Of a stretch of DNA of 40,000 nucleotides, positions 21-38,338 are shown piece by piece. Source of the stretch: Eubacteriales bacterium (GTDB lineage Bacteria > Bacillota > Clostridia > Oscillospirales > CAG-382). The notes beneath the pieces are model-generated. The model was not told the DNA's origin and searched no databases. It saw only the letters and a list, made by a program, of their open reading frames with translations. How positions within the stretch are numbered: position 1 is the stretch's first letter; each line of letters starts with the position of its first letter. The translations under genes and the position numbers were made by a program. The stretch lies in NCBI GenBank assembly GCA_045534025.1, contig JAZSIW010000009.1, positions 1-40,000 on the forward strand, written 5' to 3'.

Positions 21-415
21 TTAGCCGGGTATTCTTATCTTTTGCCCGACCTTAATTAAATTCGGATTTTCGATGCCGTTGTATTCAGCTATGCTCTTTG
101 CATCTGTAGGTCACCAATAGACTTTCCTATCTTTTCGTGCAAATTCAAGCAACGCCGCTTTGCGAGAGTGGTACTTCCATTGAGCCAAGCCGTAACCCGC
201 TTTGTCGTGCACAAAATTGCTATAGAGCCTTTGTCTACAGCTTTGGTATAGCTTGTATTTGTGTGACAACGTTTTTTCTCAAAGGAATTTTGAAGGTTTG
301 ATGGCGTGCACGCTGACTCTGCCTCGAAGTTGGCTATAACGCCGCAAGCTGCGGCGTTATTAAGCCCTAAAGTTGATGTAAGGTATTTAAAGATTGTCTT
401 TTGCTTTTTTGTCAT
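21..415 (-). pseudogene. Endolysin-like gene whose homology signal is split over two reading frames (lysozyme-like N-terminus plus LysM tail); possible pseudogene or indel errors
   Basis: ATG at 415 with RBS AAAGGAGG. That frame reads LGLNNAAACGVIANFEAES..NLQNSFEKK..YTKAVDKGS (phage tail-lysozyme-type motif), then degenerates. The -1 frame from ~224 reads YSNFVHDKAGYGLAQWKYHSRKAALLEFARK. The first frame resumes with IGKSIGDLQMQ and stops at 89. The other frame ends IAEYNGIENPNLIKVGQKIRIPG* (C-terminal half of a LysM) at 21. Confidence 0.45.
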
Positions 416-22111: not shown

Positions 22112-22614
22112 TCGCCGTCCCCCTCCATTCTGTTTTTATATGCTGAAATAATGGTGTCAGCGAGGGATGCAGTTTGTCCGGGGCCGTTTTCGCCAAAGTC
22201 GGATATGCTCTCCTGCCTTGTTTCCTTTTCGAGCTTTGTTCCCAACGAAAGAAAGCGGGCTATATCTTTTGCCGACAAATACTTCAAACTGTCGAGGGCT
22301 TTTACCGCCTTTTTCTGCAAAAGCATCGCCGTTTGTATCTGCCTGTCTTGCATCTTTTTGATGGCGAGTTTCTTTTCTTCAAACTCTTGACGGCGCAAAT
22401 CGTTCTCGTAATCACGAACACGCTTCGGCCATTCCCACATACTGCTCCATCTGCCTATGAGTGCGTGGGATTTGTTCAACTGCTGTTCAACTTTTCGTAA
22501 AGTGCGCTCCCCGCCCATTTGGAGATACAAGTAAAAAGCTTCATAAGCCTGTGCGCTTTCGTTTGGCTGACGTTCCCAAGACAACAAATTCTTGCTCCCT
22601 TTAGCCTTTGCCAT
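22108..22614 (-). CDS. terS: Terminase small subunit
   Basis: 168 aa. N-terminal ESAQAYEAFYLYLQMGGERTLRKVEQQLNKSHALIGRWSSMWEWPKRV pattern (HTH) is common in Firmicutes phage small terminases. Located directly upstream of terL. Confidence 0.7.
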   Translation of the reverse strand: MAKAKGSKNLLSWERQPNESAQAYEAFYLYLQMGGERTLRKVEQQLNKSHALIGRWSSMWEWPKRVRDYENDLRRQEFEEKKLAIKKMQDRQIQTAMLLQKKAVKALDSLKYLSAKDIARFLSLGTKLEKETRQESISDFGENGPGQTASLADTIISAYKNRMEGDGE

Positions 22615-23905
22615 TATCCTCCTCTCCTTTTAGGGCGTATTTATAAACTATGTCGCCGTTTTCGTCTCTGCCAACGGGTCTGAGTATTCCTCCGTACCCT
22701 TTTGCCGGGCTTGTACCCTTGTTGGGGCTGTTCCAATTATCCCTAAGAAACTGCGACATTGTTGTATCATAATTTAACGCACGGTTTTTGTTGTTTCCCG
22801 TGTTGTAGCCTGCGGCTCCGACCCAGGGGAATGAAAAATATTTGTCGATGTTTTCTGAAATATCGGGCCATCGCACCTCTCCGTTTTCTCTTGCTGTTAT
22901 AATCGCTTGACCGAGGTTTCCCGTTTGGCTTACGTCCCATTCCGGTGGTACGCCGCAACAGTTACAAGCATCGTTGCATTCACGGCAAAAAGCGTCGCTA
23001 ACGTGGAAACGCATACCGAGGCTGTGGACGTATTCCCTCATATCGTGGATAATCGGTGCCTTTATGCCTCGGTTAAGCCTCTTGTAGCCATGTTGGGTGC
23101 TATTCTCCATATAGTATTTGTGTATGTCAAAACCACAAATCTTGCTCATTTCAGCGTATCGCTTCTTGAGGTTTTCGTCGGCTCTTGCTTCCATACAGAA
23201 AAACTCTGTCGTAACACTGTCGGCTCCGGCTTCGTGTGCCATTGATATAAGCTTCTTGTAATCCGAGGAAACTCCGAGGATAAACGGTCTAAGGCGTAGT
23301 GTTACGTGTATACCGATGTCTGAAAGCCTCTTTATTGCGGCTATCCTTTCTTCCGGTGAGGGCACGCCCTTTTCTATCCTTCGTGCCTTTTCTTTGTCTG
23401 CGGTTATTATGGAGATTTTAACGTGCCAATTATGGGTGTGTCTCTTGAACAGCTCCATATATCTTTCGTCGGCCGTCCACCAAGCAGCTTTTGTGCTAAA
23501 AGAAAGCGGGTAGTCTATTTTGTCGAAATACTTAAGAAGCTCCAACGTAACACCGTATCTACGCTCCCATTCGTCAAATTCGTCCGCAAGCCCTCCCCAT
23601 TGCATTATCCTGCGATTTTGGATATATGGGAAGAATTGTTGTTCCGTCTTAGTTACTCCCTCGGTATTGTTCAGCATAGCATTCTCAAATAAATTTATAA
23701 CCTTTTGAGGGTTTATGCAACGAGGTGCGCCGCCGCCTCCTATATAACCGTTTAATGTATGGCTTTTTTGGAAATAAGAAAAACAGTAAAGGCAGTTGTA
23801 AGCGCATTTGCTGTATGTGTCGAGGCTCATGGGCATCGAGCAATCGGGGATTTCCATGCTCCACCTTGGTGAGCTATAGTTTTGCTTTAATTGCTTTTCG
23901 TCCAT
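22601..23905 (-). CDS. Radical SAM enzyme, SplB/COG1533-like, 434 aa
   Basis: Start set to ATG 23905 (RBS TAGGAG overlapping the upstream stop). CX3CX2C cluster CAYNCLYC near the N-terminus and a C-terminal Cys cluster CRECNDACNCC. The 3' end overlaps the terS start by 14 nt. Confidence 0.8.
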   Translation of the reverse strand: MDEKQLKQNYSSPRWSMEIPDCSMPMSLDTYSKCAYNCLYCFSYFQKSHTLNGYIGGGGAPRCINPQKVINLFENAMLNNTEGVTKTEQQFFPYIQNRRIMQWGGLADEFDEWERRYGVTLELLKYFDKIDYPLSFSTKAAWWTADERYMELFKRHTHNWHVKISIITADKEKARRIEKGVPSPEERIAAIKRLSDIGIHVTLRLRPFILGVSSDYKKLISMAHEAGADSVTTEFFCMEARADENLKKRYAEMSKICGFDIHKYYMENSTQHGYKRLNRGIKAPIIHDMREYVHSLGMRFHVSDAFCRECNDACNCCGVPPEWDVSQTGNLGQAIITARENGEVRWPDISENIDKYFSFPWVGAAGYNTGNNKNRALNYDTTMSQFLRDNWNSPNKGTSPAKGYGGILRPVGRDENGDIVYKYALKGEEDNGKG

Positions 23906-23916
23906 GCTTTTTTCTC

Positions 23917-24501
23917 CTATTCGTCTATTCTTATAACTGTTGTTTGCGAACCTTCTTTTATCTGCCCGGTGAAGCCTTCGTCTTCGGCCCACCTCTCTGC
24001 ATAGAAGCTGTTTTCAAATACAAGGGTTACAACATAGCTGCCGCCTAAGATTTCTCCCTCGTATTCATCGTCCCACTCACCAAAGTCTGAGTCGTCTATG
24101 AGGTCCGAATTGTTGGCAAGTATAACGGCTATTTCGTCTTCCGAAAAGCCCGAAAGCGCTGCCACTTCGTAATCGAAGTCTTTTAATATCGCTTCCAACT
24201 TTTCGTAGTCCCATTGCCCCTTGATTTTGTTAAGCGCTACATTAAGCAGCTTTTCGTCTGTTTCGTCGAGGTCAACAACAGAGCAAGGGATTGTGTCGTA
24301 TCCTAAATGTTTCATAACGGCAAGGCGCTGATGGCCGCCTACTACGTTGCCCGTTCTTTTGTTCCAAACAATAGGCACCACATACCCTATTTCGGTGATG
24401 CTCCTTTCGAGCTTTTCCCACTCCGGCATCCCCGGTGCCAATTCTACACGGGGATTGTAAGGTGCTGCGTTAAGCTGCGCTATCTTAATTTCCTGTACCA
24501 T
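23917..24501 (-). CDS. ParB/Srx N-terminal domain protein (paralogue 2) with acidic linker and small C-terminal domain
   Basis: 194 aa. APYNPRV...VPIVWNKRTGNVVGGHQRLAV (ParBc-type core), then LNVALNKIKGQWDYEKLEAIL, an acidic stretch, and C-terminal YVVTLVFENSFYAERWAEDEGF. RBS GGAGGGG. Confidence 0.75.
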   Translation of the reverse strand: MVQEIKIAQLNAAPYNPRVELAPGMPEWEKLERSITEIGYVVPIVWNKRTGNVVGGHQRLAVMKHLGYDTIPCSVVDLDETDEKLLNVALNKIKGQWDYEKLEAILKDFDYEVAALSGFSEDEIAVILANNSDLIDDSDFGEWDDEYEGEILGGSYVVTLVFENSFYAERWAEDEGFTGQIKEGSQTTVIRIDE

Positions 24502-25099
24502 ACTCTGTCCCCTCCATCTTGATTGTTATGTTTCGGGCTGCGTCTTTGTATTCCGCCTCTACTCCTCTGTCTGTAAGCCACTTTTCGGCGGCTTCCTTTG
24601 TAGGAAAAGAAATAAACACGTGGAACGGCTTTTGACGCTCTACCGGCTCCGTTTCTTCGTCCGCGTCGTCGTCCGTTTCCTCGTAGTCATCCGTGTCGTA
24701 TTCTTCTTCACCGAACATACTTAAAAGTTCCTCCGCTGTAAAGCCGGTGTATTGTATGTCGTCGGCGTCTATTTCGTCAAAAAGCTCCTCCAATTTCTTG
24801 TAGTCCCATTCGCCGTCTATCTTGTTGATAGCGATATTAAGGAGCTTTTCTTGTTCTTCATCAACTTCTATAAGCACCACTTCCGCCTCCGTTTTTCCCT
24901 TATCTTTTAACACGGTGAGGCGTTGGTGCCCGCTTACGAGGTTTCCGGTGGTTTTGTTAAGCACTAAAGGCTCCACCAAATCAAATCGGTCAAGGCTGTT
25001 TTTCAAAGCCTCGTATTCGTCGTCGCCCGGTTTCAAAGCCTTTCGGGGGTTATAATCTGCCGGGCGGATATCTTCGAGTTTCATTATGGCGGTTTCCAT
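24485..25099 (-). CDS. ParB/Srx N-terminal domain protein (paralogue 1) with acidic linker and small C-terminal domain
   Basis: 204 aa. ADYNPRK...EPLVLNKTTGNLVSGHQRLTV, then LNIAINKIDGEWDYKKLEELF, the acidic run EYDTDDYEETDDDADEETE, and C-terminal FHVFISFPTKEAAEKWLTDRG. Confidence 0.75.
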   Translation of the reverse strand: METAIMKLEDIRPADYNPRKALKPGDDEYEALKNSLDRFDLVEPLVLNKTTGNLVSGHQRLTVLKDKGKTEAEVVLIEVDEEQEKLLNIAINKIDGEWDYKKLEELFDEIDADDIQYTGFTAEELLSMFGEEEYDTDDYEETDDDADEETEPVERQKPFHVFISFPTKEAAEKWLTDRGVEAEYKDAARNITIKMEGTEYGTGN

Positions 25100-25100
25100 A

Positions 25101-25862
25101 CTATTTAGCTCCTTTTCTTCGTTTTAGCTTTACGCTGTTTTCCTTTGAGGGGATAATCTCAAGTATGTCCCCGTGTTTTCTCTTGAGAAGCTTTAACATA
25201 TCGGTTTTGCGCTTCCACGCCTCTGCGCATCCTCCGTCTGCAAATCTGTCAATATCAGCGCAGGTGTCGTCTATGCTAACAAAAGCTCCGTAGCGTTTGA
25301 TTATTTGAGCACACATATCGGTATCTTGGAGGACAACAAAGTTGCGGTCAAATCGCAAATCCGTATTTATCAAGCCGTAAAAGCCCGTATCGCACAGTTT
25401 CCGTCTGTTATGGCCCGGCCGCATAAACATAGCGTTCCTTGTCATTGAAAGCCCAAAGCCAACCGTCTTTTCAAGCCTGCAAATTGCAAACCCTCTGCGG
25501 CAAAGAGTTAAAAGCTCTTCGAACTTTTGTACGTTAACGAGCTTTCGCTTCCCCGTTGCTTTATCTATCGTAAGGCGTTTTATCGCTTTTATGTCGTCTT
25601 CCAATATTACAATTTTTACGCCCTTTGAGTGGTAGTCTAAAAGCGTGTTAAAATTATCCGCAGCGCAACTCCCCCCCCGGTATAAGAAGGCGCCTACACG
25701 CTTGTTGACTCCTGCACGGGTGTACGCCTGCCGGTCCTCCTCTGTCTGCACGGAAAGAGATATCCAATCTTTCGGACATCCCATCGACTCAAGCAAATCG
25801 AGCGTTTTTTGGCGTCCGGCTCTTTTGTAGCTTGGTATGCAAAATAAAAATTCGGGCGTCAT
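25101..25862 (-). CDS. GT-A-fold-like transferase (paralogue 2)
   Basis: 253 aa. N-terminal FCIPSYKRAGRQ resembles the GT2 IPTYNR block. DxD-like IVILEDDI. C-terminal GGCAEAW is shared with the upstream paralogue. ATGA overlap with the upstream gene. Confidence 0.5.
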   Translation of the reverse strand: MTPEFLFCIPSYKRAGRQKTLDLLESMGCPKDWISLSVQTEEDRQAYTRAGVNKRVGAFLYRGGSCAADNFNTLLDYHSKGVKIVILEDDIKAIKRLTIDKATGKRKLVNVQKFEELLTLCRRGFAICRLEKTVGFGLSMTRNAMFMRPGHNRRKLCDTGFYGLINTDLRFDRNFVVLQDTDMCAQIIKRYGAFVSIDDTCADIDRFADGGCAEAWKRKTDMLKLLKRKHGDILEIIPSKENSVKLKRRKGAK

Positions 25863-26626
25863 TCTTTTTTCTTCTTTCTCAAATCTATTCTGTTGTTATC
25901 TCGCAATAGCACCCTTGCTTCGTGGGGCTTGTTTTTCTGTGGTGCTAAAATGTTTGGGTAAGCCTTGGAAAGTCTCTCTACGGTCTTTAAATTTTCGTCT
26001 GAGTGCCAAATTTCGTAGCAACCGCCTGCATTCGTCCGATGCTTTGCATTCGGGGCGAGAAAATTGTATCGCAACACTTCTCCGCCACCTTCGAGCACCC
26101 TTGCACACATTTCTATGTCTTCTTTTGTTTTGTAGCTTTCGTCGAACAACAGCTCATGCCCTTTTGTGAAGCCAATTACCGTGTTCACCGTAACCGTCGT
26201 CGATATGCTCGGCGACATAAAAAAAGCGTTATGCACGGGGTAAATCCCGAACAACGACGCTTTCCTCTTTTGTGCCATATTAAAGCACTTGTTTAGTAAT
26301 TCTGCGAACTCCTCGCGTGTATCGATGGGTACGAGTTTGTTTCCTCTAAGCTTCCCTATGCTTGAAACATCATCGTCAAACATAAGGATATTTGTGGCAC
26401 CCGAAAAATACCTCAGAGCGTTGTTCCTTGCTGCCGCTACTCCGTTTGCCGGGGTAAGGATTATGTTCGCCCTGTCTTCGTGCTTTTTGTAAGCCTCTCT
26501 GTCATTTGCGGTTTGCACAAAAATGTATATACGTTCTTTGGGTATTCCAAGCCCCGATAAATAATCAAGTGTTATCTGTTTTTCGGCTCTCCTGTATGAA
26601 GGTATTGCCATTACAAAGTTCTCCAT
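25859..26626 (-). CDS. GT-A-fold-like transferase (paralogue 1)
   Basis: 255 aa. RBS GAAGGAGGG. MAIPSYRRAEKQ, DxD-like ILMFDDDV, and C-terminal GGCYEIW. Confidence 0.5.
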   Translation of the reverse strand: MENFVMAIPSYRRAEKQITLDYLSGLGIPKERIYIFVQTANDREAYKKHEDRANIILTPANGVAAARNNALRYFSGATNILMFDDDVSSIGKLRGNKLVPIDTREEFAELLNKCFNMAQKRKASLFGIYPVHNAFFMSPSISTTVTVNTVIGFTKGHELLFDESYKTKEDIEMCARVLEGGGEVLRYNFLAPNAKHRTNAGGCYEIWHSDENLKTVERLSKAYPNILAPQKNKPHEARVLLRDNNRIDLRKKKKE

Positions 26627-27068
26627 TAGCTACCCTCCTTCTCAACTCTGTCGAGCTTAATCCGTGCGCCCTGCTATTATAATAAATTTCGATGCCGAGG
26701 TCCCTGCAGGCTTGCTTCCCGGTGAAATCTTTGTCTCTATAATCTTCCCCTACAAATCGTATGTCTATGGGGAGTGAGCGAATGGCTAACTCCAAGTCTG
26801 CCTCGCTTTCAAGTGGTACTACCTCATCTACGGCTCTGTGGCCCACAAGCTGGGCGTATCGTTCGAATACCGATTGTACGGGCTTGTTTTTGAACGGTCT
26901 GTCCGTAGTCGGGTCTGTTATTATGCCGACGTATAAATAGTCGCAGTACATTTTACATTCATCGAGCATCAACGAATGCCCTGCGTGTAACAAATCTCCT
27001 ACAACCGATGTGAAGCCGATAATTAACGGCTTTGCGCTTTTTTTGCTACTCGCTAAAGAGCTGTCCAT
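26565..27068 (-). CDS. Cytidylyltransferase-family nucleotidyltransferase (TagD/ECT/RfaE-II-like)
   Basis: 167 aa. GFTSVVGDLLHAGH carries the HxGH signature. Also YVGIITD and the C-terminal RAHGLSSTELRRRV (R..G.S[ST]T motif). Confidence 0.75.
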   Translation of the reverse strand: MDSSLASSKKSAKPLIIGFTSVVGDLLHAGHSLMLDECKMYCDYLYVGIITDPTTDRPFKNKPVQSVFERYAQLVGHRAVDEVVPLESEADLELAIRSLPIDIRFVGEDYRDKDFTGKQACRDLGIEIYYNSRAHGLSSTELRRRVANGELCNGNTFIQESRKTDNT

Positions 27069-28131
27069 TCTTATCTATCATCCCTTTTGCCATGGTTTTG
27101 ACTATCTGCTTCCCTTTTTCGTCTTTATATCTGTACAGCCTTATAATGTACATCAAGTGGAGCCCTACAACGATATCGTAAATGCCCCTGCGCTTGAGTA
27201 TGCAATCCAATGTTGCGAGGTATGCCGTGTTGTTTGCTTCACTTATGCCGAAAGCGTATTCGTATCCGCTAAGCGACATTCTAAGCTTAGCAAAATCTAA
27301 AAGGTAGCTTGAGCTTTCTCTAAAATAGCGTGGGTCTATGAAATAAAGCTGCCCATCGTCGCCTTTGATGATATTGCTTAATATCATATCGCCGTGAGAA
27401 TAGCTTGCGTGCCTGTGAAAAGCTTCTTTGTGATGTGTGATAAAACGCTTGCACAAATCTATTATCCCGTTCATTTCTTTGTCGCTGGAGTAATTGCCTT
27501 CCAAAATCTCAATATGCGGTGTTATGTCAAACGCTGCCTTCCTTCTCTTTGAAAACTCAAGGATAGTAAATAAGACTTTGGCAAAATCTTCGTCGGTAAA
27601 GCAGTCTACAAGGTTTTTCCCTTCTATGAAGTCCATATAAACTGCGTTGTATAGGCAAGAAATAACCCTCGGAAACTTGCATGCGCCGGCGTTATCTTCG
27701 ACCCATTCGCGAAAACGGGCGGTATCTTCTACGCTCCCAAGCATCTTTTTTACCGTTTTGCCGAGGCGGTATATAGGCTTGTTAGAGCCTCCTCCGTGTA
27801 ACATTCCAAAGGTACCGGAGTGGAAGTCTGCTAAGTTAACCGCTTTGTCGTCAACATACAAATCTCCGATGGGCTTGCCGAATATCAGTTCATCGCACGG
27901 CACATCGTGCTTTTTTAGCCACCTTATTATCTGCGCTCGATTGCGGGCCTCTATCAACGCTAAATCGCCGTTGCATGAAACCTGACCTCTTGCTGTGTGA
28001 ATGACTATCTCGCATCCATCCTCTTTGAGCTGCCGCATCTTCTCGACAGTTTCAAGAATGGGCGTAGCGTTCTCGTAATCACGATTTATGTGAGTGCTTA
28101 TGGTGTCGTCTAAATCAAATACTATGCGCAT
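27046..28131 (-). CDS. Fusion protein: small HAD-superfamily phosphatase (N-terminal) plus choline-kinase/APH-fold kinase (C-terminal)
   Basis: 361 aa. RBS GGAAGGAGAGG. HAD motif I VFDLDDT, motif II IHTAR, and motif III/IV GKPIGDLYVDDK. Kinase part has LHGGGSNKPIYRLGKTVKK, catalytic HGDMILSNII, and YFIDPRY. Confidence 0.7.
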   Translation of the reverse strand: MRIVFDLDDTISTHINRDYENATPILETVEKMRQLKEDGCEIVIHTARGQVSCNGDLALIEARNRAQIIRWLKKHDVPCDELIFGKPIGDLYVDDKAVNLADFHSGTFGMLHGGGSNKPIYRLGKTVKKMLGSVEDTARFREWVEDNAGACKFPRVISCLYNAVYMDFIEGKNLVDCFTDEDFAKVLFTILEFSKRRKAAFDITPHIEILEGNYSSDKEMNGIIDLCKRFITHHKEAFHRHASYSHGDMILSNIIKGDDGQLYFIDPRYFRESSSYLLDFAKLRMSLSGYEYAFGISEANNTAYLATLDCILKRRGIYDIVVGLHLMYIIRLYRYKDEKGKQIVKTMAKGMIDKNGQLFSE

Positions 28132-28252: not shown

Positions 28253-28281
28253 ATTCTACCACACTCTTTTTGCCTTGTAAA
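28253..28281 (-). promoter_or_regulatory. Sigma-A/sigma-70-type promoter: TTTACA - 17 nt - TGgTAGAAT
   Basis: Minus strand has a -35 TTTACA (28281-28276), a 17-nt spacer with an extended-10 TG (28261-28260), and a -10 TAGAAT (28258-28253). It lies in the 189-nt gap after the regulator gene. Confidence 0.6.
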
Positions 28282-28320: not shown

Positions 28321-28989
28321 CTAAAACTTTTCTATGCCGCAAATCCCGTACAAAAGGGAAGTGAGGCAGGAAACGGCGGCGTCTATGTCCTTGTATACTG
28401 TGCGCTTGTCTATATGCTCCGTGTTGGCTATGCTCTGCGCCGTGGTAGGGATTTCGTCAAGGTACATCGCCTTGAGTATGCGGTAGTGCCTTTTGTCGTC
28501 CTCTCGGTTGGAACGTTCACACATAAGAGCGTAAACATCAAGCATACGGTTAACGTGGGTCATTATTATCTTTGTGCGTACCGTGGAGCTTTTTATGGCC
28601 TCCACGCTAAAATTATCTTCGTAGCCCTTGCTTGACATCATTTCCATAATGTCGATAAAGCTTTCGTCTACTTCTTCCGCCTGTTCTATTTCAAAAATGG
28701 CGTTATTAAAGTGTTCGTTGAGGTGCCTATAGTTCTGCATAAGGAGCTTCGTATTGTGGTATCTGCGGTCATATTGACGCTCTCGGAGCTTCTTTTTCTC
28801 ACGCTCTATAGATTTAATAGCCGCTTTAGCTCCTACCTCTGCACCTACCGCCGCACCGATTTGTGTGCCAAGAGTAATGGCCGCTTTAAGCTTTTCGTCG
28901 ATGTTTTTGTTTGCTACGTCATAAGCTGCGATAACGGCTGCCTTGATTATTTCCTCGATTTCAAGCCCCGTCCTGTTGTTTGTTCCCAT
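28321..28989 (-). CDS. Putative late-gene transcriptional regulator (ArpU/RinA/sigma region-4-like C-terminus)
   Basis: 222 aa. RBS GAGGAGGTG. Central RRYHNTKLLMQNYRHLNEH and C-terminal HTH-like YRILKAMYLDEIPTTAQSIANTEHIDKRTVYKDIDAAV. It is the last gene before the late promoter. Confidence 0.45.
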   Translation of the reverse strand: MGTNNRTGLEIEEIIKAAVIAAYDVANKNIDEKLKAAITLGTQIGAAVGAEVGAKAAIKSIEREKKKLRERQYDRRYHNTKLLMQNYRHLNEHFNNAIFEIEQAEEVDESFIDIMEMMSSKGYEDNFSVEAIKSSTVRTKIIMTHVNRMLDVYALMCERSNREDDKRHYRILKAMYLDEIPTTAQSIANTEHIDKRTVYKDIDAAVSCLTSLLYGICGIEKF

Positions 28990-30495: not shown

Positions 30496-30792
30496 TCACC
30501 CCCAATCCAAAGCCTGTCCGCAGTCCGGGCAGTAAGCACAGCCCCAATTATTGATACCGTACTCAAAGTCGCCGTTACCGCAGTTCGGGCATTTGGCGTT
30601 ATCGTAGATGAGGTTTCCGTCCTCGTCGTAGCCGTCGCCCCAAAATTCGGGTGGTTGCGGTATTTGTTTTAAGATAGCCTTTCTTCCGATTTCGCAAGCC
30701 TCGTTTACAGGCTCAATACTCTCGTAGTGTTCGCGGTGCGTCGGGTCAAGGATTTCGGCGGCTCTTTCGAGCATCATTTCCTGTTTGCTCAT
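30496..30792 (-). CDS. Small zinc-ribbon protein
   Basis: 98 aa. CPNCGNG...CAYCPDCG (two CxxC pairs). Confidence 0.55.
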   Translation of the reverse strand: MSKQEMMLERAAEILDPTHREHYESIEPVNEACEIGRKAILKQIPQPPEFWGDGYDEDGNLIYDNAKCPNCGNGDFEYGINNWGCAYCPDCGQALDWG

Positions 30793-31193
30793 GCACCCAC
30801 CTCCTCAATGGCTTTTATGACCTCCGCTGTGGTCTGTCCTTTTTTTATTCCTACCATAATTGCGGGCGGTGTCGGCATTTCTGCCGCGATAGGCCGCCAA
30901 AGGTGAAGGCAATTAGGGATGTTATTTACATATTCGCTCTTTGCCGGGTGATACTGTACTACGGTTTCATTTTCTCTGAAAAACATATCTTTCAGCTTGC
31001 ACATATCGTCCCATGACGGCGTTATCTTCCTGTTGCACGGTGCTACGCTAACGTGTTCCCAACCTCCGCCGTTGCTCCATATTACCGTAGCCCAACGTTT
31101 ACCGGCTTGAAATATCACTCCGCACCCGCCGTCGGGAGCGGTCCGGGCGATAAGTAAATTCGGTATGTTTTTGAGTTCTTCGTTTGTCTTCAT
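30789..31193 (-). CDS. Conserved phage protein of unknown function
   Basis: 134 aa. GGGWEHVSVAP...PSWDDMCKLKDMFF...VVQYHPAKSEYVNN.PNCLHLWRP is a pattern I recognise from many phage early regions. Function unknown. Confidence 0.55.
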   Translation of the reverse strand: MKTNEELKNIPNLLIARTAPDGGCGVIFQAGKRWATVIWSNGGGWEHVSVAPCNRKITPSWDDMCKLKDMFFRENETVVQYHPAKSEYVNNIPNCLHLWRPIAAEMPTPPAIMVGIKKGQTTAEVIKAIEEVGA

Positions 31194-31885
31194 TTAGCTG
31201 CCTCCATTTCTGCCCGTAGGGACTCTTTGATGTAGTAGTTGAGTCCAAGCTGCCGACAAAGCGTTTCGGCTCTCCTGCCAAAGTCCGCCCAATCAATGTT
31301 GGATTTGTGATAGTTCAGTTTGCCGATTTTGACCTTATCGACAATCGGTGCTACCAAGTGTAGGTTGATGAAAAACTCTCTATCATCGGTTACGGGCTCG
31401 AATGATACCCAAGTCTTTATGCCGAGGCTGTGCGCCTGTGCGAGAGCGTCAACCCTTGCTTTCCATTGCGGGTTTCTGCCGTTGCCAATACCGTCGAGGG
31501 TTATGCCGTACCAATCCTCCGGACCGAGCAAATCAAAATCACGGCTGCCGTCGCCTTTGGTGAGGATTTGCACGTTATTACCGGTGCTTTTCAGTAGGGA
31601 GATTATCTCGCGTGTTACGGTGGTGTCGTAACCGTGAGGGTATGGGTCGCAAGTAAAACAAAGGTGTATAAGCTTCCCTTTGATGCCCTCATGCTCTATC
31701 TGCTTCCGTGTTTCTTCGACGATGTTCGGCTTTGGCTCTACAACGCTATGGAATTTTTCTCTGTCTTTATGTAAGACATTGGGCGCAAAGCAGTAATAGC
31801 ATCTATGAGGGCACCCCGTGTATATGTTTATTGCGTAGTCTCCGTATTCTTTTGCTTTGCCCTTTGGTATGTAAATAGGCTTCAT
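31190..31885 (-). CDS. Radical SAM enzyme, short SplB/COG1533-like, 231 aa
   Basis: INIYTGCPHRCYYCFAPN carries CX3CX2C in the context N.Y.GC.H.C.YC typical of COG1533 'DNA repair photolyase'-type radical SAM proteins. Confidence 0.75.
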   Translation of the reverse strand: MKPIYIPKGKAKEYGDYAINIYTGCPHRCYYCFAPNVLHKDREKFHSVVEPKPNIVEETRKQIEHEGIKGKLIHLCFTCDPYPHGYDTTVTREIISLLKSTGNNVQILTKGDGSRDFDLLGPEDWYGITLDGIGNGRNPQWKARVDALAQAHSLGIKTWVSFEPVTDDREFFINLHLVAPIVDKVKIGKLNYHKSNIDWADFGRRAETLCRQLGLNYYIKESLRAEMEAAK

Positions 31886-32314: not shown

Positions 32315-33109
32315 CTAATGTTTGTCTAATTGACTTATAAGTCCTTGCAACGGGAAATTCATCCAAAGCTTTTCTGTTCTGTGTAATCCCATTTGCGCCG
32401 TTGTATCAATTAAATCCGTGTACCACCCATCAAGCATAGAGTTATATAATTCGCTGTCGTATCCGCTAATAACGACTTTTGCGTTGCTGTTAAGCAAGGC
32501 GCCCAAAAGGTCCCTATGCTTTTCTTCGGACATTTCGCAAGCATACATATTTCTTTTCCGCAAACTTGGCAGATACGGGGGGTCACAATATATAAGCGTA
32601 TCCGAGCTGTTGTATCGCCTAATAAGCTCAATGGCATCTATTCTTTCTATTTGGGCATCTTTAAGCCGCATACAGCAACTTTGTATAATCTGCGGCAAAT
32701 CATTCCACATAGTTGCACATCGAGGACCGCCATAGGTTTGTACATTGCGCCAGCTCCTTTTACTGCTGTTGCTTGTTCCAAAAGATTGATGATACCGCAC
32801 CAATGTCCTCCGAGCCTGCTCAACCGGGTCTACAGAACGGTGGTAGCACTCTTCAAATTCTTGCCGGCTGAACGGAGTAAGGCTTATTGCTCTTGCAAGT
32901 GCATCGGGCTGTTCTCTGCACACTTGAAACAAATTCACAATGTCGCCGTCAATATCGTTTATCGTTTCTATATAGGTTGGGGTCTTTTGAAAAAACACGC
33001 CGCCCGACCCAAAGAAAGGCTCTAAATAAACCTTGTGTTCGGGGAAATGCGATATTATCCATTGTGCTATGCGCCACTTTGCGCCGGGATACTTAAGAAT
33101 TGCTTTCAT
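32315..33109 (-). CDS. dam: Dam-family (D12 class) N6-adenine DNA methyltransferase
   Basis: Start set to ATG 33109 (RBS AAGGAG). LKYPGAKWRIAQWI, motif I EPFFGSGGVFF, motif IV LIYCDPPYL. Confidence 0.85.
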   Translation of the reverse strand: MKAILKYPGAKWRIAQWIISHFPEHKVYLEPFFGSGGVFFQKTPTYIETINDIDGDIVNLFQVCREQPDALARAISLTPFSRQEFEECYHRSVDPVEQARRTLVRYHQSFGTSNSSKRSWRNVQTYGGPRCATMWNDLPQIIQSCCMRLKDAQIERIDAIELIRRYNSSDTLIYCDPPYLPSLRKRNMYACEMSEEKHRDLLGALLNSNAKVVISGYDSELYNSMLDGWYTDLIDTTAQMGLHRTEKLWMNFPLQGLISQLDKH

Positions 33110-33419
33110 TTTGCATCTCCTTATGCTGTAGTTCGCCGTAACTGCAATAATCATTTGGGTCAAGTCCGTCAGTCATAAAATAAGAACACACAATATCATC
33201 TCCCGAATAGTCGGTAATATCCAATGGGTCTTTTTCCATATTTGCCACATTAAATTTACAATCTTTACACCTTACCACTTCCACAACATCTGCGGTGGGT
33301 ATCTTTGAAAGGTTGGGAGAATACTCTTCTCCGTGGTCGCAATAAGTATTACAACCGCTGTTACTATGATGTCGGCAAGTCTCACATTTGCCTAAATATT
33401 TTGTGTCAATATAGGGCAT
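33093..33419 (-). CDS. Small Cys-rich protein (paralogue B)
   Basis: 108 aa. CETCRHH..GCNTYCDHG, VVRCKDCKF, NDYCSYGE. Confidence 0.55.
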   Translation of the reverse strand: MPYIDTKYLGKCETCRHHSNSGCNTYCDHGEEYSPNLSKIPTADVVEVVRCKDCKFNVANMEKDPLDITDYSGDDIVCSYFMTDGLDPNDYCSYGELQHKEMQNESNS

Positions 33420-36194: not shown

Positions 36195-38015
36195 TTAATT
36201 TAAAAGCAACATAGCGTTGTTCGTGACGGGAGCGAGGTAATAATTCGCCTTAGCCATAATGTCGTTGTACGCTTGTTCTCCTTGAAAACCGTCTATGACG
36301 TTTTTTTCCTCCTCGGTCATATCGGTGTAACGCTTCCTGCCGTAGCACGGAGGCAGCCACGCTTTATTTTGGGCAGCGTAGATATTAAATCTCTCTATCA
36401 ATTCGGGGCAGGTAAATACAAGGTGTACCGTACCCTTTTTGTAAAACGTTGCTTTGAAATACTTGAGGGGTACGTTTTTGGTTTCTCCATGTTTAAAGTG
36501 CCATTCTAACGTCTGCTCAAGGCTTACGTCTAAGGTCATATTGCCGTCGAGGAAATTGAGTATGCGCTCTATATCTTCTAAAACTTTTCGAGCTTCATAG
36601 GTGCGAGGTTTACCATCCCAACTATCGAACACTCCATAGCAAGGGATGATAACCTTCTTGCCTATTTTGTGGGCTTTGTTTGTAGCCCATCCGTCGTAAT
36701 AATGCCTGTTCTTTTGTGTTTCCGGGTACCACGAATGTTCCTCCGTCAAGCGGTCAAACATCGCTATTATCTCCTCCTCAATTCCGGTCTTGATTTGGGA
36801 GTTCATTTCGGCAAGCAAGGTGTATATGTTGTACTCCGTGTAATCATAAGCAGCTAACTTGCTTACTTTTACGTAGTATTCCTGTTGGAGCTTGCTTGTA
36901 AGCTTGCTTACAAATTTAGGGTTTTTGACTAACGCTATCCAATACTTTAGCCTTACGGCTTTCAAATATTCGTTTACAGAAACGGTGTTGTAGCAACGGT
37001 CGTATGTGTCTTTGAGTTTCAATATAGGCTCCGTGTCTACATATTCTCTGCTTATGGTGCCGTCTGCGTTCTTAACCTCTTTTGTTTCAAAAGAACGTAT
37101 CATATACGGCATCATAGCTCTGTATTGTCTTATAAGCTCTATGCCGGCTTTGACTTCTACTCGGAATAGATTTACGGAAGATTTGATAACGTCGGTTACG
37201 TCTAAGTCTCTGCTTTCAAAATCAAAATCCTCTACCGCCTCAGCTTCCTTCATTCGGTTGTATATTTCGCTTTCTTCCTGTACTGCCGGTATGTCAACCT
37301 TAATTATGGCTACCTCGACGTTTGTTTTTCGCTCTGCCTCCATAAATGCGCCTTCTTCAAATTCGATGGAAGCGCCGTATGTGTTAAGCAAACGTATAAG
37401 CTCTTTTCGGGTTTCTGTGTAAGGGTTGCGGATTGTTTCGGCGTTGACTAAGAACACGATCTTCCCGCCATCCCTTTGTATTTCCAAAGCTTTCAAAAGG
37501 TGTCTATCCGCAACGCTAAAGGGAGGGTTTCCGATGATAAGGTCGTATTGCTTAAACGGCTCAAAGGTAAGAAAATCATCGTGTACGACGTGTATGCCGC
37601 CGTGTATAAAGGTTTTCAGCTCCTCCTCAAGTAGTGCGTGTTCGGCCTTATCCTCTGCAGAGGCCCATACGTATTTATGGGCGTCGGAGCTGTAGTTGCG
37701 TCGGTTTTCAAGTTCTCCTTGCCTTCTGTGAATTTCGCTTTTTCTTTCTTCCGAAAAGTTGTATTTAAGTATCTGCCTTAAATTCGGGTCTATCTCTACG
37801 CAATCAACGTCGTATCTATCGTCGCAGTATCTTGAATATTCATTGGCCGCTTTTTTTGCAAACCCTCGTATGATATCACCTTTCCCGGCGGAAGGCTCAA
37901 GCACGGTGTTAATCTTTCTCAAGTCTACTTCTTCTAACATTTTTTGCACCAAACGTGGAGGCGTAGGGTAAAACTCGCTGCTTTCAGCGTTCTCTACAAG
38001 CTGTACTGCGTTCAT
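36195..38015 (-). CDS. Gamma-class N6-adenine DNA methyltransferase with a large C-terminal extension (DUF4942-like)
   Basis: Start set to ATG 38015 (ATGA overlap, RBS GGAGGAGG). EFYPTPPRLV, motif I LEPSAGKGDI, motif IV LIIGNPPF. About 400 further residues of unassigned function follow. Confidence 0.8.
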   Translation of the reverse strand: MNAVQLVENAESSEFYPTPPRLVQKMLEEVDLRKINTVLEPSAGKGDIIRGFAKKAANEYSRYCDDRYDVDCVEIDPNLRQILKYNFSEERKSEIHRRQGELENRRNYSSDAHKYVWASAEDKAEHALLEEELKTFIHGGIHVVHDDFLTFEPFKQYDLIIGNPPFSVADRHLLKALEIQRDGGKIVFLVNAETIRNPYTETRKELIRLLNTYGASIEFEEGAFMEAERKTNVEVAIIKVDIPAVQEESEIYNRMKEAEAVEDFDFESRDLDVTDVIKSSVNLFRVEVKAGIELIRQYRAMMPYMIRSFETKEVKNADGTISREYVDTEPILKLKDTYDRCYNTVSVNEYLKAVRLKYWIALVKNPKFVSKLTSKLQQEYYVKVSKLAAYDYTEYNIYTLLAEMNSQIKTGIEEEIIAMFDRLTEEHSWYPETQKNRHYYDGWATNKAHKIGKKVIIPCYGVFDSWDGKPRTYEARKVLEDIERILNFLDGNMTLDVSLEQTLEWHFKHGETKNVPLKYFKATFYKKGTVHLVFTCPELIERFNIYAAQNKAWLPPCYGRKRYTDMTEEEKNVIDGFQGEQAYNDIMAKANYYLAPVTNNAMLLLN

Positions 38016-38338
38016 ATCGTCGCCTCCTCCGTGCATATCTTTATACCGATAATAACGTGTTCCGGCGTATGTGTCGTGCCTCTGTCGTACAGCGTAGCCG
38101 TGTCGCCGTCAAACTCCCAAAACGGAGTTTTGCTCCAATATAACCAAGAGCCCTTGCCGCAGTTGGCGGCGGACACTTTGCTTTGAGGCTGCCCCGGAAT
38201 AATACTGTAAAAGCCCTGCGTATTTGCTATGTTTACCTTTCGCCTCTGCCCTATGTATTCGGGCCTACAATGGGCCGTTACTTCAAATTCTGCGCCGGGG
38301 GTTAGCGCCTTCTTTAACTGAGATAAATTTTTAATCAT
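38012..38338 (-). CDS. Hypothetical protein
   Basis: Start set to ATG 38338 (RBS GAGAGG). 108 aa. The longer ORF would overlap the loader gene. Confidence 0.5.
   Translation of the reverse strand: MIKNLSQLKKALTPGAEFEVTAHCRPEYIGQRRKVNIANTQGFYSIIPGQPQSKVSAANCGKGSWLYWSKTPFWEFDGDTATLYDRGTTHTPEHVIIGIKICTEEATI

Follow-up and report, generated by a model that had tools for sequence, protein, structure and literature searches.

Glycosylation of its bases protects phage DNA against restriction enzymes and CRISPR nucleases, and such bases are the target of type IV restriction. To our knowledge, the sugars on gut-phage DNA and the source of their donors are largely unknown. The locus described here raises the question of which activated compound is supplied by a phage HAD phosphatase, kinase and nucleotidyltransferase encoded side by side, and to which acceptor. 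The window (the whole 40,000-nucleotide stretch of DNA that was analysed) belongs to a phage or prophage of myovirus type. The nearest relatives of this phage or prophage are in genomes of Oscillospiraceae, Lachnospiraceae and other Clostridia. A preliminary description had read the genes as a self-contained donor-activation module and had preferred a route from sugar phosphate through sugar bisphosphate and sugar 1-phosphate to an NDP-sugar. The fusion protein and the nucleotidyltransferase probably supply the sugar donor for an operon for glycosylation (hypermodification) of phage DNA. The features are listed in Table 1.

Table 1. Coordinates of the operon features in the window, with predicted roles.
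Feature	Coordinates	Strand	Size or extent	Matches and motifs	Predicted role
Spore-photoproduct-lyase-like (SPL-like) radical SAM enzyme	22601..23992	-	463-aa ORF	PF04055	
ParB-N-like protein 2	23917..24501	-		PF02195 E=5.8e-7, above cut-off; PHROG_498/620 E~1e-39	
ParB-N-like protein 1	24485..25099	-		PF02195 weak; PHROG_498/620 E~1e-39	
TAGT2, paralogue of TAGT1	25101..25862	-			Second DNA glycosyltransferase (second sugar or second linkage)
TAGT1, TET-associated-type glycosyltransferase	25859..26626	-		GT-A, DDD motif	DNA glycosyltransferase, NDP-sugar user
HxGH (HIGH-family) nucleotidyltransferase	26565-27068	-	167 aa		Sugar-1-phosphate nucleotidylyltransferase
HAD-kinase fusion gene	27046-28131	-	361 aa		
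APH/choline-kinase-fold domain, fusion C-terminus	27046..27813	-	residues ~107-361		Anomeric (C1) sugar-phosphate kinase
HAD phosphatase domain, fusion N-terminus	27814..28131	-	residues 1-106		Sugar-1,n-bisphosphate distal phosphatase
Promoter-like site, upstream of operon	28253..28281	-		TTTACA-17-TAGAAT with TG, 10/12 matches	

The limits of both the fusion gene and the nucleotidyltransferase gene were exactly those given in the preliminary description. The fusion translation contains DLDDT at residues 6-10, GKPIGDLYVDDK at 85-96, HGDMILSN at 246-253 and FIDPRY at 264-269. The HAD domain matched TIGR01689 (E=1e-23), PHROG_1238 (E=4.5e-21) and PDB 1xpj (E=1.7e-17), with a weak match to the HAD-IIIA model (E=3e-5). 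It also matched PDB 9iqw, titled 'D-arabinose 1,5-diphosphate phosphatase AfhF' (E=2.4e-7, 32% identity), and Maestro gp082 (36% identity, E=5e-15), and profile comparison with AfhF-type HAD proteins gave E~7e-19. The AF2 model of the fusion had two domains and a pLDDT of 92.8. Foldseek matched the HAD part to 1xpj and AfhF and the remainder to choline kinase/ethanolamine kinase (3dxq), LicA (4r77) and APH enzymes. The nearest viral fold matches of the kinase domain included an Indivirus nucleotidyltransferase fusion (E=6e-21) and RB69 ORF052c, which is of AfhE type (E=7e-8). By BLASTP the kinase domain was 29% identical to the C-terminal domain of Maestro gp083 over 155 aa (E=2e-8), with the motifs HGDxxxSN, IDPRxYF and DxAKxxxxLxGY in common; the profile match to AfhE-like proteins was marginal. 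The domain matches of the fusion, and those of the nucleotidyltransferase given below, are not due to chance.

A protein collection contained 350 full-length relatives of the fusion. In the 56 that were compared, HAD residues D6, D8, K86, D94 and D95 (motifs I, III and IV) were invariant, as were kinase residues G114, G115, S116, K129, H246, G247, D248, N253 and D266, which make up the P-loop, beta3 Lys, catalytic loop and metal Asp. The active sites of the window proteins are intact. Residues D279 and K282 were invariant in the kinase family, and an equivalent D and K were present in both AfhE-like kinases compared. A HAD_2-kinase fusion of Paenibacillus, encoded in a polysaccharide cluster, also matched the kinase domain (E=1e-38).

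The nucleotidyltransferase carries H28-A-G-H31 and, near the C-terminus, RAHGLSST, and matched PF01467 (E=1e-9). No equivalog model was matched above its curated cut-off. TIGR02199 (rfaE_dom_II) gave E=3.4e-16 and 59.4 bits against a cut-off of 181.5, and TIGR01518 (TagD) gave E=5e-12 and 46 bits against 165, placing the protein outside both the HldC-type heptose-1-P adenylyltransferases and TagD/LicC as these models define them. The ranking of rfaE_dom_II above TagD was repeated in every orthologue tested from other loci. Among PDB sequences the matches were TagD 1coz (2.9e-9), ECT 3elb (4.9e-9) and HldC 5x9q (4.6e-5), and the protein is nearly as close to TagD as to HldC. The ORF shares 23 nt with the fusion gene at its start and 62 nt with the next gene at its end. 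The N-terminus could be shorter than called because relatives are only 137-155 aa long; within its first 30 codons the ORF offers no other start than a TTG at codon 26. Other phage homologues (Acinetobacter Ab1-TPeters, Vibrio Va1) had uninformative gene contexts. The preliminary assignments, a HAD phosphatase and an APH-fold kinase in one polypeptide (ORF, TIGR01689, AF2 folds) followed by an HxGH protein of TagD/ECT/RfaE-II type (PF01467, TIGR02199, PDB matches), were borne out.

The two genes stand at the head of an operon with the order fusion, nucleotidyltransferase, TAGT, TAGT, ParB, ParB, radical SAM enzyme, TerS and TerL. Every junction from the fusion gene to TerL is an overlap or at most 1 nt. 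The sole intergenic gap, of 189 nt, lies upstream of the operon and contains the promoter-like site, which is suggestive by position only since the count of such sites in the region was not above chance. TAGT1 matched PF20691 (E=6.5e-14, 52.8 bits, above the cut-off of 27.5) and PHROG_842 (E=1e-22). TAGT2 was 30% identical to TAGT1 over 233 aa (E=3e-30) and matched PHROG_842 (E=1.7e-7); its PF20691 match was below the cut-off (E=0.0025, 18.2 bits). The preliminary description had missed these genes directly downstream of the pair, which would make DNA glycosyltransferases the users of the donor. At the DNA level the operon gave a single weak match of 343 nt against 50,697 phage records. It has no close sequenced relative at that level and was therefore compared through its proteins.

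In almost all of about 55 related loci with a full-length fusion, the nucleotidyltransferase gene comes next after the fusion gene; the exceptions were mostly ORF-calling losses or loci ending there. In these loci the pair always adjoins DNA glycosyltransferases and base-modification genes. Five contexts were distinguished. In addition to TAGT with ParB and radical SAM genes, the pair was found with a ThyA homologue, a Tmk-like kinase, a putative glycosyltransferase and Pol III alpha; with a T4 alpha-GT-like protein (PF11440) and a C5-methyltransferase; with a GT4 and a 5-hmdU DNA kinase; and with two GT2 proteins. Judged from these neighbourhoods the donor module is portable, with at least five different glycosyltransferase/base-modification partners. 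No TET/5mYOX was recognised among the scanned neighbours of the module in the sampled IMG/VR loci. The ThyA homologues were considered as 5-hydroxy-dCMP synthases and rejected: they lack D169N, and D169 is kept with N177D. They are predicted to be of the dCMP hydroxymethylase/methylase type. In two loci an SDR NDP-sugar epimerase/dehydratase is encoded between the nucleotidyltransferase and the glycosyltransferase, which argues for an NDP-sugar and against a CDP-alcohol. The SDR enzyme of locus L005 scored similarly with dTDP-glucose dehydratase, GalE and heptose epimerase models. The donor module was also present in TAG-recoded large phages.

In the proposed pathway, the kinase domain would phosphorylate a host-derived sugar phosphate at the anomeric position to give a sugar 1,n-bisphosphate. 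The fused HAD domain would remove the distal phosphate and the nucleotidyltransferase would convert the sugar 1-phosphate and an NTP to an NDP-sugar. The two TAGT enzymes would place the sugar on a hydroxymethyl-pyrimidine of phage DNA, where it would probably form a mono- or disaccharide. The acceptor hydroxyl would probably be made after replication by the ParB-like pair and the SPL-like radical SAM enzyme. The sugar-bisphosphate route preferred in the preliminary description is supported because the same architecture heptosylates DNA (contig 53; Pyle, Lund, O'Toole, Saleh; bioRxiv 10.1101/2023.12.21.572611) and because AfhE/AfhF follow the same logic.

The sugar would most likely be a heptose, from heptose 7-phosphate, with a pentose or hexose phosphate as possible alternatives. 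Heptose 7-phosphate is not known to be generally available in Clostridia, the hosts. A search for sugar-phosphate isomerases of GmhA/API type (SIS), seeded with E. coli GmhA and with the 92A1 and Maestro API proteins, found no matches in the window and 37 related loci. Synthesis of Ara5P or heptose-7-P by the phage itself was rejected on this result. As no isomerase was found and the hosts are Clostridia, the heptose observed in E. coli may not be the native sugar. The donor-activation part of the preliminary description stands, but the module is not fully self-contained, as no phage source of the sugar phosphate was found.

A reversed order of the first two steps is unlikely. The HAD domain would free the sugar from a sugar n-phosphate, the kinase would phosphorylate C1 as in the NahK and AmgK-MurU logic, and the nucleotidyltransferase would activate the product. 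APH-fold anomeric kinases of free sugars are established (NahK, AmgK and MtnK), which fits this order. Table 1 of PMC13326640 also words the RB69/DLP3 homologues in this way ('dephosphorylates Araf5p to Ara', 'phosphorylates Ara to Araf1p'), but for AfhE/AfhF, which were studied experimentally, the text of that article and the 9iqw PDB title give the bisphosphate route. The invariance of D279 and K282 would fit recognition of a phosphorylated substrate.

An acceptor other than DNA, namely virion proteins or, by lysogenic conversion, a host cell-surface polymer, is improbable. Phage GT-A glycosyltransferases of this kind resemble the PBCV-1 capsid-protein glycosyltransferase and teichoic-acid glycosyltransferases (bioRxiv 10.1101/2023.12.21.572611), and the related Paenibacillus fusion lies in a polysaccharide cluster. 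The neighbours in the window are nevertheless DNA-directed (ParB-like proteins, SPL-like radical SAM enzyme, terminase), no membrane or flippase proteins were found in the operon, and PF20691 is defined through association with DNA-base oxidation systems. The ThyA homologue, Tmk-like kinase, Pol III alpha, T4 alpha-GT-like protein and 5-hmdU DNA kinase of other loci also point to DNA.

A CDP-alcohol route of LicA/LicC or TagD type is quite improbable. Here a phospho-alcohol (glycerol-, ribitol-, choline- or ethanolamine-P) would be converted to a CDP-alcohol for a phosphodiester decoration, with the HAD domain trimming a phosphate afterwards. In single-sequence comparison with the PDB the nucleotidyltransferase matches TagD and ECT best, and choline/ethanolamine kinases and LicA are the best PDB folds of the kinase. 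Against this, neither the window nor the related loci encode a CDP-alcohol phosphotransferase of TagF/LicD type, glycosyltransferases being the partners in every case, and the tested contig 53 cluster yielded neutral heptose adducts (Pyle et al.). The AfhF-family HAD domain, the AfhE-type kinase folds and the profile ranking favour the sugar route over this one, as the preliminary description had proposed.

That the kinase acts on antibiotics or proteins and adjoins the nucleotidyltransferase fortuitously is highly improbable: the fold matches do include APH(2''), APH(3') and macrolide phosphotransferases, but fusion to a sugar-bisphosphate-type HAD domain is kept in 350 proteins, adjacency is near-universal over about 55 loci in very different phage backbones, and all three genes were needed in the published reconstitution (Pyle et al.).

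With DNA glycosylation as the preferred reading, the acceptor has to be accounted for. No match to Tet_JBP, PF00145 or ThyA was found among the window ORFs scanned, and tblastn with C5-methyltransferase and ThyA seeds was negative in the window. The window lacks the customary enzymes that make the acceptor, whether with oxygen or at the nucleotide level, and a highly conserved set of ParB and SPL-like radical SAM genes replaces them. Of 54 related loci, 50 have a gene for ParB-N-like protein 1 beside that for the radical SAM enzyme. No TET/JBP dioxygenase accompanies the TAGT genes in the window, and in the 54 related radical SAM loci the TAGT partners are ParB and the radical SAM enzyme. The radical SAM protein probably starts at the ATG of codon 30 (nt 23905), giving about 434 aa. 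Its CxxxCxxC motif (C37/C41/C44) and a second Cys cluster are invariant, and the best 120 of its 2088 relatives are at least 68% identical. The AF2 model (pLDDT 84) had spore photoproduct lyase 4fhg/4fhc as best PDB folds (E~1e-7), while no match to PDB sequences was found at E<=1. The match to the PA0069-family model NF033668 (E=8e-20, 71 bits) was below the cut-off of 360; the fold is SPL-like, yet by sequence the protein falls outside the SplB/PA0069 equivalogs. We infer that this enzyme makes the acceptor group on a DNA base.

A wider reading is offered tentatively. The ParB and radical SAM cassette would be widespread in phages of gut anaerobes, with the donor module as one interchangeable accessory. 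The cassette would functionalise the C5-methyl group of thymine (or 5mC) after replication and independently of O2, an anaerobic equivalent of the TET/5mYOX dioxygenases that depend on ParB. The handle would be decorated by a TAGT, with or without an NDP-sugar module, or by a P-loop kinase and an amino-acid:DNA transferase. In the window this would yield a base-J-like 5-hydroxymethyluracil carrying a heptose (or another sugar) and synthesised without oxygen. If the ParB and radical SAM proteins do make the hydroxymethyl handle, this would be new DNA chemistry and would account for DNA hypermodification by phages of strict anaerobes. The literature searched contained nothing linking radical SAM and ParB to 5hmU, no study of DNA modification in Agathobaculum phages and no description of a cassette of ParB and an SPL-like radical SAM enzyme.

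The sugar-donor module most likely serves DNA decoration against restriction, which is of a known type; the radical-SAM/ParB gene set that accompanies it is unusual. The window is a natural example of the HAD-kinase and nucleotidyltransferase donor module, for which the only earlier functional test was of one metagenomic contig (bioRxiv 10.1101/2023.12.21.572611). In this subclass III phage hypermodification cluster, contig 53, a HAD-like/APH-like bifunctional enzyme, a cytidylyltransferase and a GT-B DNA glycosyltransferase were all essential (Pyle et al.). The products in E. coli were 5-heptosyl- and di-heptosyl-methylcytosine, formed by heptosylation of 5hmC; the sugar was identified as heptose by mass and the adducts were neutral, not phosphodiesters (Pyle et al.). 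The annotation keys were TIGR01689 and TIGR02199/CTP_transf_like (Pyle et al.). The window proteins match the same models, with a small N-terminal HAD (TIGR01689) and a C-terminal APH-fold kinase in one polypeptide, an adjacent CTP_transf/TIGR02199-like nucleotidyltransferase and a predicted DNA glycosyltransferase directly downstream (TAGT1, PF20691 above cut-off), the likeness being one of architecture and shared model matches only. Contig 53 has one 429-aa GT-B (GT4) enzyme and a C5-methyltransferase and 5mYOX/TET set making 5hmC, whereas the window has two GT-A TAGT paralogues and, in place of TET, C5-methyltransferase or ThyA homologues, the ParB pair and the SPL-like radical SAM enzyme.

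The UDP-D-arabinofuranose pathway is described for the T4-like phages HY126, RB69, DLP3, Maestro and 92A1 (He et al. 2026, as summarised in PMC13326640). According to that summary, the AfhE kinase converts Ara5P to Ara-1,5-P2, the HAD protein AfhF removes the 5-phosphate, and the AfhE nucleotidyltransferase domain makes UDP-Ara. The proposed pathway has the same steps of anomeric phosphorylation of a sugar phosphate, distal-phosphate removal by a HAD protein and nucleotidyl transfer, and the product would likewise go to DNA glycosyltransferases. The HAD proteins are homologous (32-36% identity), and the kinases have the fold and C-lobe motifs in common. In AfhE a MurU-like NTP_transferase is fused N-terminally to the kinase, whereas in the window the kinase is fused to the HAD domain and the nucleotidyltransferase is a separate HxGH Rossmann-type PF01467 protein. 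The phage arabinose-5-P isomerase and D169N ThyA-type 5-hydroxy-dCMP synthase of the AfhE/AfhF system were not found in the window, and its glycosyltransferases are GT-B and not GT-A.

The bacterial ADP-heptose pathway (GmhA, HldE/HldA, GmhB, HldC) also runs from kinase to HAD phosphatase to HxGH nucleotidyltransferase on a sugar phosphate, and the best profile of the window nucleotidyltransferase is the HldE domain II model. Unlike that pathway, with its PfkB/ribokinase-fold kinase and GmhB, the window has an APH-fold kinase and a TIGR01689-type HAD domain, no GmhA, and scores far under the equivalog cut-offs. ParB-dependent 5mYOX thymine dioxygenase systems are known in phages (PMC13229309). 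These systems and base J resemble the window operon in that ParB-like genes lie beside a base-functionalising enzyme (a predicted one in the window), glycosyltransferases or amino-acid:DNA transferases, and terminase. In place of the 5mYOX enzymes, which are O2-dependent Fe/2OG dioxygenases, the window encodes a radical SAM enzyme of SPL-like type, and the host bacteria are strictly anaerobic. The less explored part of the operon is this conserved ParB and radical SAM core, replacing TET/ThyA in phages of anaerobes.

Both ORFs of the donor module lie on the minus strand at the limits first described and every motif quoted for them was found in place, confirming the original observation. Residues 1 to approximately 105 of the 361-aa fusion form a small HAD phosphatase, which matched the TIGR01689 profile (capsule biosynthesis phosphatase, E = 1e-23), PHROG_1238 (E = 4.5e-21) and PDB 1xpj (E = 1.7e-17). 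Beyond this domain Pfam matches were faint. The C-terminal part was modelled by AF2 as an APH/choline-kinase-type kinase (pLDDT 92.8). Fold comparison of the model placed it near choline/ethanolamine kinase 3dxq, LicA 4r77 and APH enzymes in the PDB. The TIGR01689 match and this fold bear out the presence of phosphatase and kinase in one polypeptide. The neighbouring gene encodes an HxGH nucleotidyltransferase, as proposed, with a match to PF01467. Its best curated profiles were rfaE_dom_II (heptose-1-P adenylyltransferase, 59 bits) and then TagD (46 bits), both far under the equivalog cut-offs. By single-sequence comparison TagD and ECT were ahead and HldC was lower.

In a large protein collection 350 proteins were related to the fusion over its full length, and most came from contigs of phage size (45-60 kb). 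Fifty-six of these relatives were aligned. In the HAD domain D6 and D8 (nucleophile and acid), K86 and D94/D95 were invariant, as were G114, G115 and S116 (glycine loop), K129, H246-G247-D248, N253 and D266 in the kinase domain. Both halves are expected to be catalytically active because these active-site residues are invariant. Among viral structures the fusion as a whole was matched best by BFVD A0A1V0SE67 (E = 6e-21, approximately 400 columns), a 635-aa giant-virus protein of Indivirus ILV1 annotated as nucleotidyl-transferase-domain-containing. This suggests that a eukaryotic virus may encode a still larger fusion with the same activities.

The fusion and nucleotidyltransferase genes are followed head-to-tail on the minus strand by genes for two TET-associated-type glycosyltransferases (TAGT), two ParB-N-like proteins, a radical SAM protein and the small and large terminase subunits. 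All junctions in this operon overlap or abut. The first TAGT scored over the gathering score of PF20691 and the second is a paralogue with 30% identity to it. The fusion gene is preceded by the sole intergenic gap, of 189 nt, which contains a promoter-like site for which the evidence is weak. The gap parts the operon from the gene for a 222-aa PHROG_1558 protein of unknown function, relatives of which (cluster c18) occupy the equivalent position in loci of the window type (type A below). This protein may regulate the late/modification operon. Elsewhere in the window the sheath, baseplate, tape measure, portal and protease genes are of myovirus type. The replication/recombination region encodes RecU, an SSB-type protein, a DnaC-like loader, two N6-adenine methyltransferases and a further radical SAM protein, shorter than the 463-aa one of the operon, which like the latter matches PHROG 13321 and PA0069/Rv2578c-type models. 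The early region also encodes a DUF7694 protein, conserved at the equivalent place in related phages (L003, L038). No TET/JBP, thymidylate-synthase homologue, C5-cytosine methyltransferase or sugar-phosphate isomerase was found in the 40 kb window. The 70%-identical relative L003, carried by the Oscillospiraceae MAG GCA_045606085.1, encodes a PF00145 enzyme in its matching early region.

Coordinates of the donor module, its neighbours in the window and features of the comparison loci
Feature	Location	Strand	Remarks
ParB-like pair and SPL-like radical SAM gene	window 22601-25099	minus	also in L038, L039, L042-L121
HxGH nucleotidyltransferase, 167 aa	window 26565-27068	minus	PF01467
Fusion, 361 aa	window 27046-28131	minus	ORF
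PHROG_1558 protein, 222 aa	window 28321-28989	minus	immediately upstream of fusion gene
DUF7694 protein	window 30789-31193	minus	
Second radical SAM protein, 231 aa	window 31190-31885	minus	
N6-adenine-type DNA methyltransferase	window 32315-33163	minus	D12/Dam class
N6-adenine-type DNA methyltransferase, 613 aa	window 36195-38036	minus	DUF4942 and Eco57I-like matches
Type-B ThyA homologues	L001:11510-12172; L005:13608-14282; L006:6388-7086		
Fusion gene with in-frame TAG codons	L018:8001-9053		
Paenibacillus thailandensis cellular homologue	L014:9470-11454		also L015, L016

The genomic context of full-length fusion relatives was surveyed in approximately 55 loci from GenBank phages, GTDB genomes, IMG/VR and metagenome assemblies. 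The nucleotidyltransferase gene followed the fusion gene in almost all, the exceptions being mostly ORF-calling losses or locus ends. Type A, that of the window, has the order [ParB]-fusion-nucleotidyltransferase-TAGT(-TAGT)-ParB(-ParB)-radical SAM-TerS-TerL; the phages and prophages in which it occurs were assigned to MAGs of Oscillospiraceae, Lachnospiraceae and other Clostridia. Type B, which includes the cultured Agathobaculum phages AB434P2/P3, runs from a primase to a Tmk-like kinase, the pair, in some cases an SDR NDP-sugar enzyme, a protein of approximately 340 aa without Pfam hits, a ThyA homologue, Pol III alpha and RecA. In type C a ThyA homologue lies upstream of the pair, and proteins resembling T4 alpha-glucosyltransferase (PF11440) come after it together with a C5-methyltransferase. 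In type D the pair precedes a GT4 enzyme, a radical SAM/SPASM protein and a 5-hmdU DNA kinase (PF18723), and in type E it follows two GT2 enzymes. From these arrangements the pair is a portable module, and its constant companions are glycosyltransferases and makers or users of hydroxymethyl-pyrimidines in DNA.

The type-B ThyA homologues retain D169 and carry Asp in place of N177. This pattern is associated with dCMP-directed and not dUMP-directed enzymes, and the sequences therefore predict a dCMP-directed hydroxymethylase/methylase type. The homologue of Agathobaculum phage AB434P3 is annotated as a dUMP hydroxymethyltransferase. A 5-hydroxy-dCMP synthase of the arabinose-phage type was also considered and was rejected, as its signature D169N is absent. 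The pair is also present on IMG/VR contigs of up to 188 kb and 30% GC (L018-L021). In L018 the fusion gene is interrupted in frame by TAG five times and by no other stop codon, from which TAG appears to be a sense codon in these large phages. A cellular relative from Paenibacillus joins another kind of HAD domain (HAD_2) to a clearly homologous kinase (E = 1e-38). The gene is followed by an NTP_transf_3 nucleotidyltransferase within a GT2/GtrA/RmlABC polysaccharide cluster. The arrangement suggests the kinase-phosphatase-nucleotidyltransferase logic of the phages, assembled independently, and the set probably activates a cell-wall sugar.

The TAGT family was defined through its association with TET. 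In the window the TAGT genes adjoin the ParB-like and radical SAM genes. The 463-aa radical SAM protein had 2088 relatives, the best 120 of which were at least 68% identical, a conservation far above that of the donor module. The protein matched curated profiles of PA0069/Rv2578c-type radical SAM families. The nearest fold to its AF2 model (pLDDT 84) was spore photoproduct lyase (SPL, E~1e-7). No other radical SAM enzyme with a characterised structure is known to act on the C5-methyl of thymine in DNA. As a rival explanation, phages of spore formers may simply carry the protein as a photoproduct-type repair lyase. Context was surveyed in 54 IMG/VR loci with enough upstream sequence. ParB-like genes adjoined the radical SAM gene in 50, and a TAGT lay beside the two in at least 20. 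The complete fusion-nucleotidyltransferase-TAGT set was present in seven, and a set of P-loop kinase, amino-acid:DNA transferase (AADT, PF18724) and GNAT in approximately nine. In many gut-phage contigs the ParB-like pair and the SPL-like radical SAM gene make up a highly conserved core, with the terminase directly after it. The DNA-decorating genes beside it vary: TAGT, TAGT with the donor module, P-loop kinase with AADT and GNAT, or radical SAM/SPASM with TAGT. TAGT and a kinase with AADT are the two known enzyme kinds which elaborate 5-hydroxymethyl-pyrimidines in DNA. ParB proteins have recently been shown to activate phage thymine dioxygenases in clusters of equal make-up (PMC13229309). 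Given the linkage of the genes and the fold, the parsimonious hypothesis is that ParB and the SPL-like radical SAM enzyme may be an oxygen-independent functional analogue of ParB and 5mYOX. Thymine is the more likely substrate here as the window encodes no C5-methyltransferase. No paper proposing such an anaerobic analogue was found in the literature searched.

The preliminary description favoured a route from sugar phosphate through sugar bisphosphate and sugar-1-phosphate to NDP-sugar. This preference is supported, and the route is the best-supported reading of the donor module, with precedents in AfhE/AfhF and in the work of Pyle et al. The kinase domain would phosphorylate a host sugar phosphate at C1, the fused HAD domain would remove the distal phosphate and the HxGH enzyme would form the NDP-sugar, from which the TAGT enzymes would transfer the sugar to DNA. 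Fusion of kinase and phosphatase may ease hand-over of the bisphosphate. The reverse order, with the phosphatase acting first and an anomeric kinase then acting on the free sugar, is possible and would give the same product. A CDP-alcohol route is unlikely because the pair was never accompanied by a CDP-alcohol transferase.

In the bisphosphate route the leading candidate sugar is heptose. E. coli already contains ADP-heptoses and still required the phage enzymes in the published experiment, which suggests that the phage donor has another nucleotide or anomer. In that experiment the HAD-APH enzyme, cytidylyltransferase and DNA glycosyltransferase of contig 53 were all essential for 5-heptosyl- and di-heptosyl-methylcytosine in E. 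coli also expressing a C5-methyltransferase and TET (bioRxiv 10.1101/2023.12.21.572611). Heptose is a candidate and no more, since the published product was identified from its mass alone, in E. coli (bioRxiv 10.1101/2023.12.21.572611), the phage encodes no isomerase and the natural hosts are Clostridia. Nor does the SDR enzyme in two type-B loci match one particular sugar.

The annotation keys of Pyle et al., TIGR01689 and TIGR02199/CTP_transf_like, are models matched by the window proteins. Contig 53 and the window pair are linked by architecture and common model matches and not by demonstrated orthology. The donor module is of a kind with one functional test already. Its mechanistically characterised cousin is AfhE/AfhF. 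According to PMC13326640 (citing He et al. 2026), the C-terminal kinase domain of HY126 AfhE converts D-arabinose-5-P to the 1,5-bisphosphate, the HAD protein AfhF takes off the 5-phosphate and the N-terminal MurU-like domain of AfhE forms UDP-arabinose. AfhF (PDB 9iqw) matched the window HAD domain by sequence and fold with 32% identity, and the AfhF-like proteins of phages Maestro and 92A1 matched the HAD family profile (E~7e-19). The kinase is more distant: pairwise matches to AfhE-like kinases (E = 2e-8 and 1e-6) had C-lobe motifs in common and the profile-level score was marginal. RB69 ORF052c and other nucleotidyltransferase-kinase fusions were among its best viral fold matches. The cassette as a whole joins GT-A TAGT enzymes to a ParB/SPL-like radical SAM pair, which stands in the place of TET/ThyA in phages of anaerobes.
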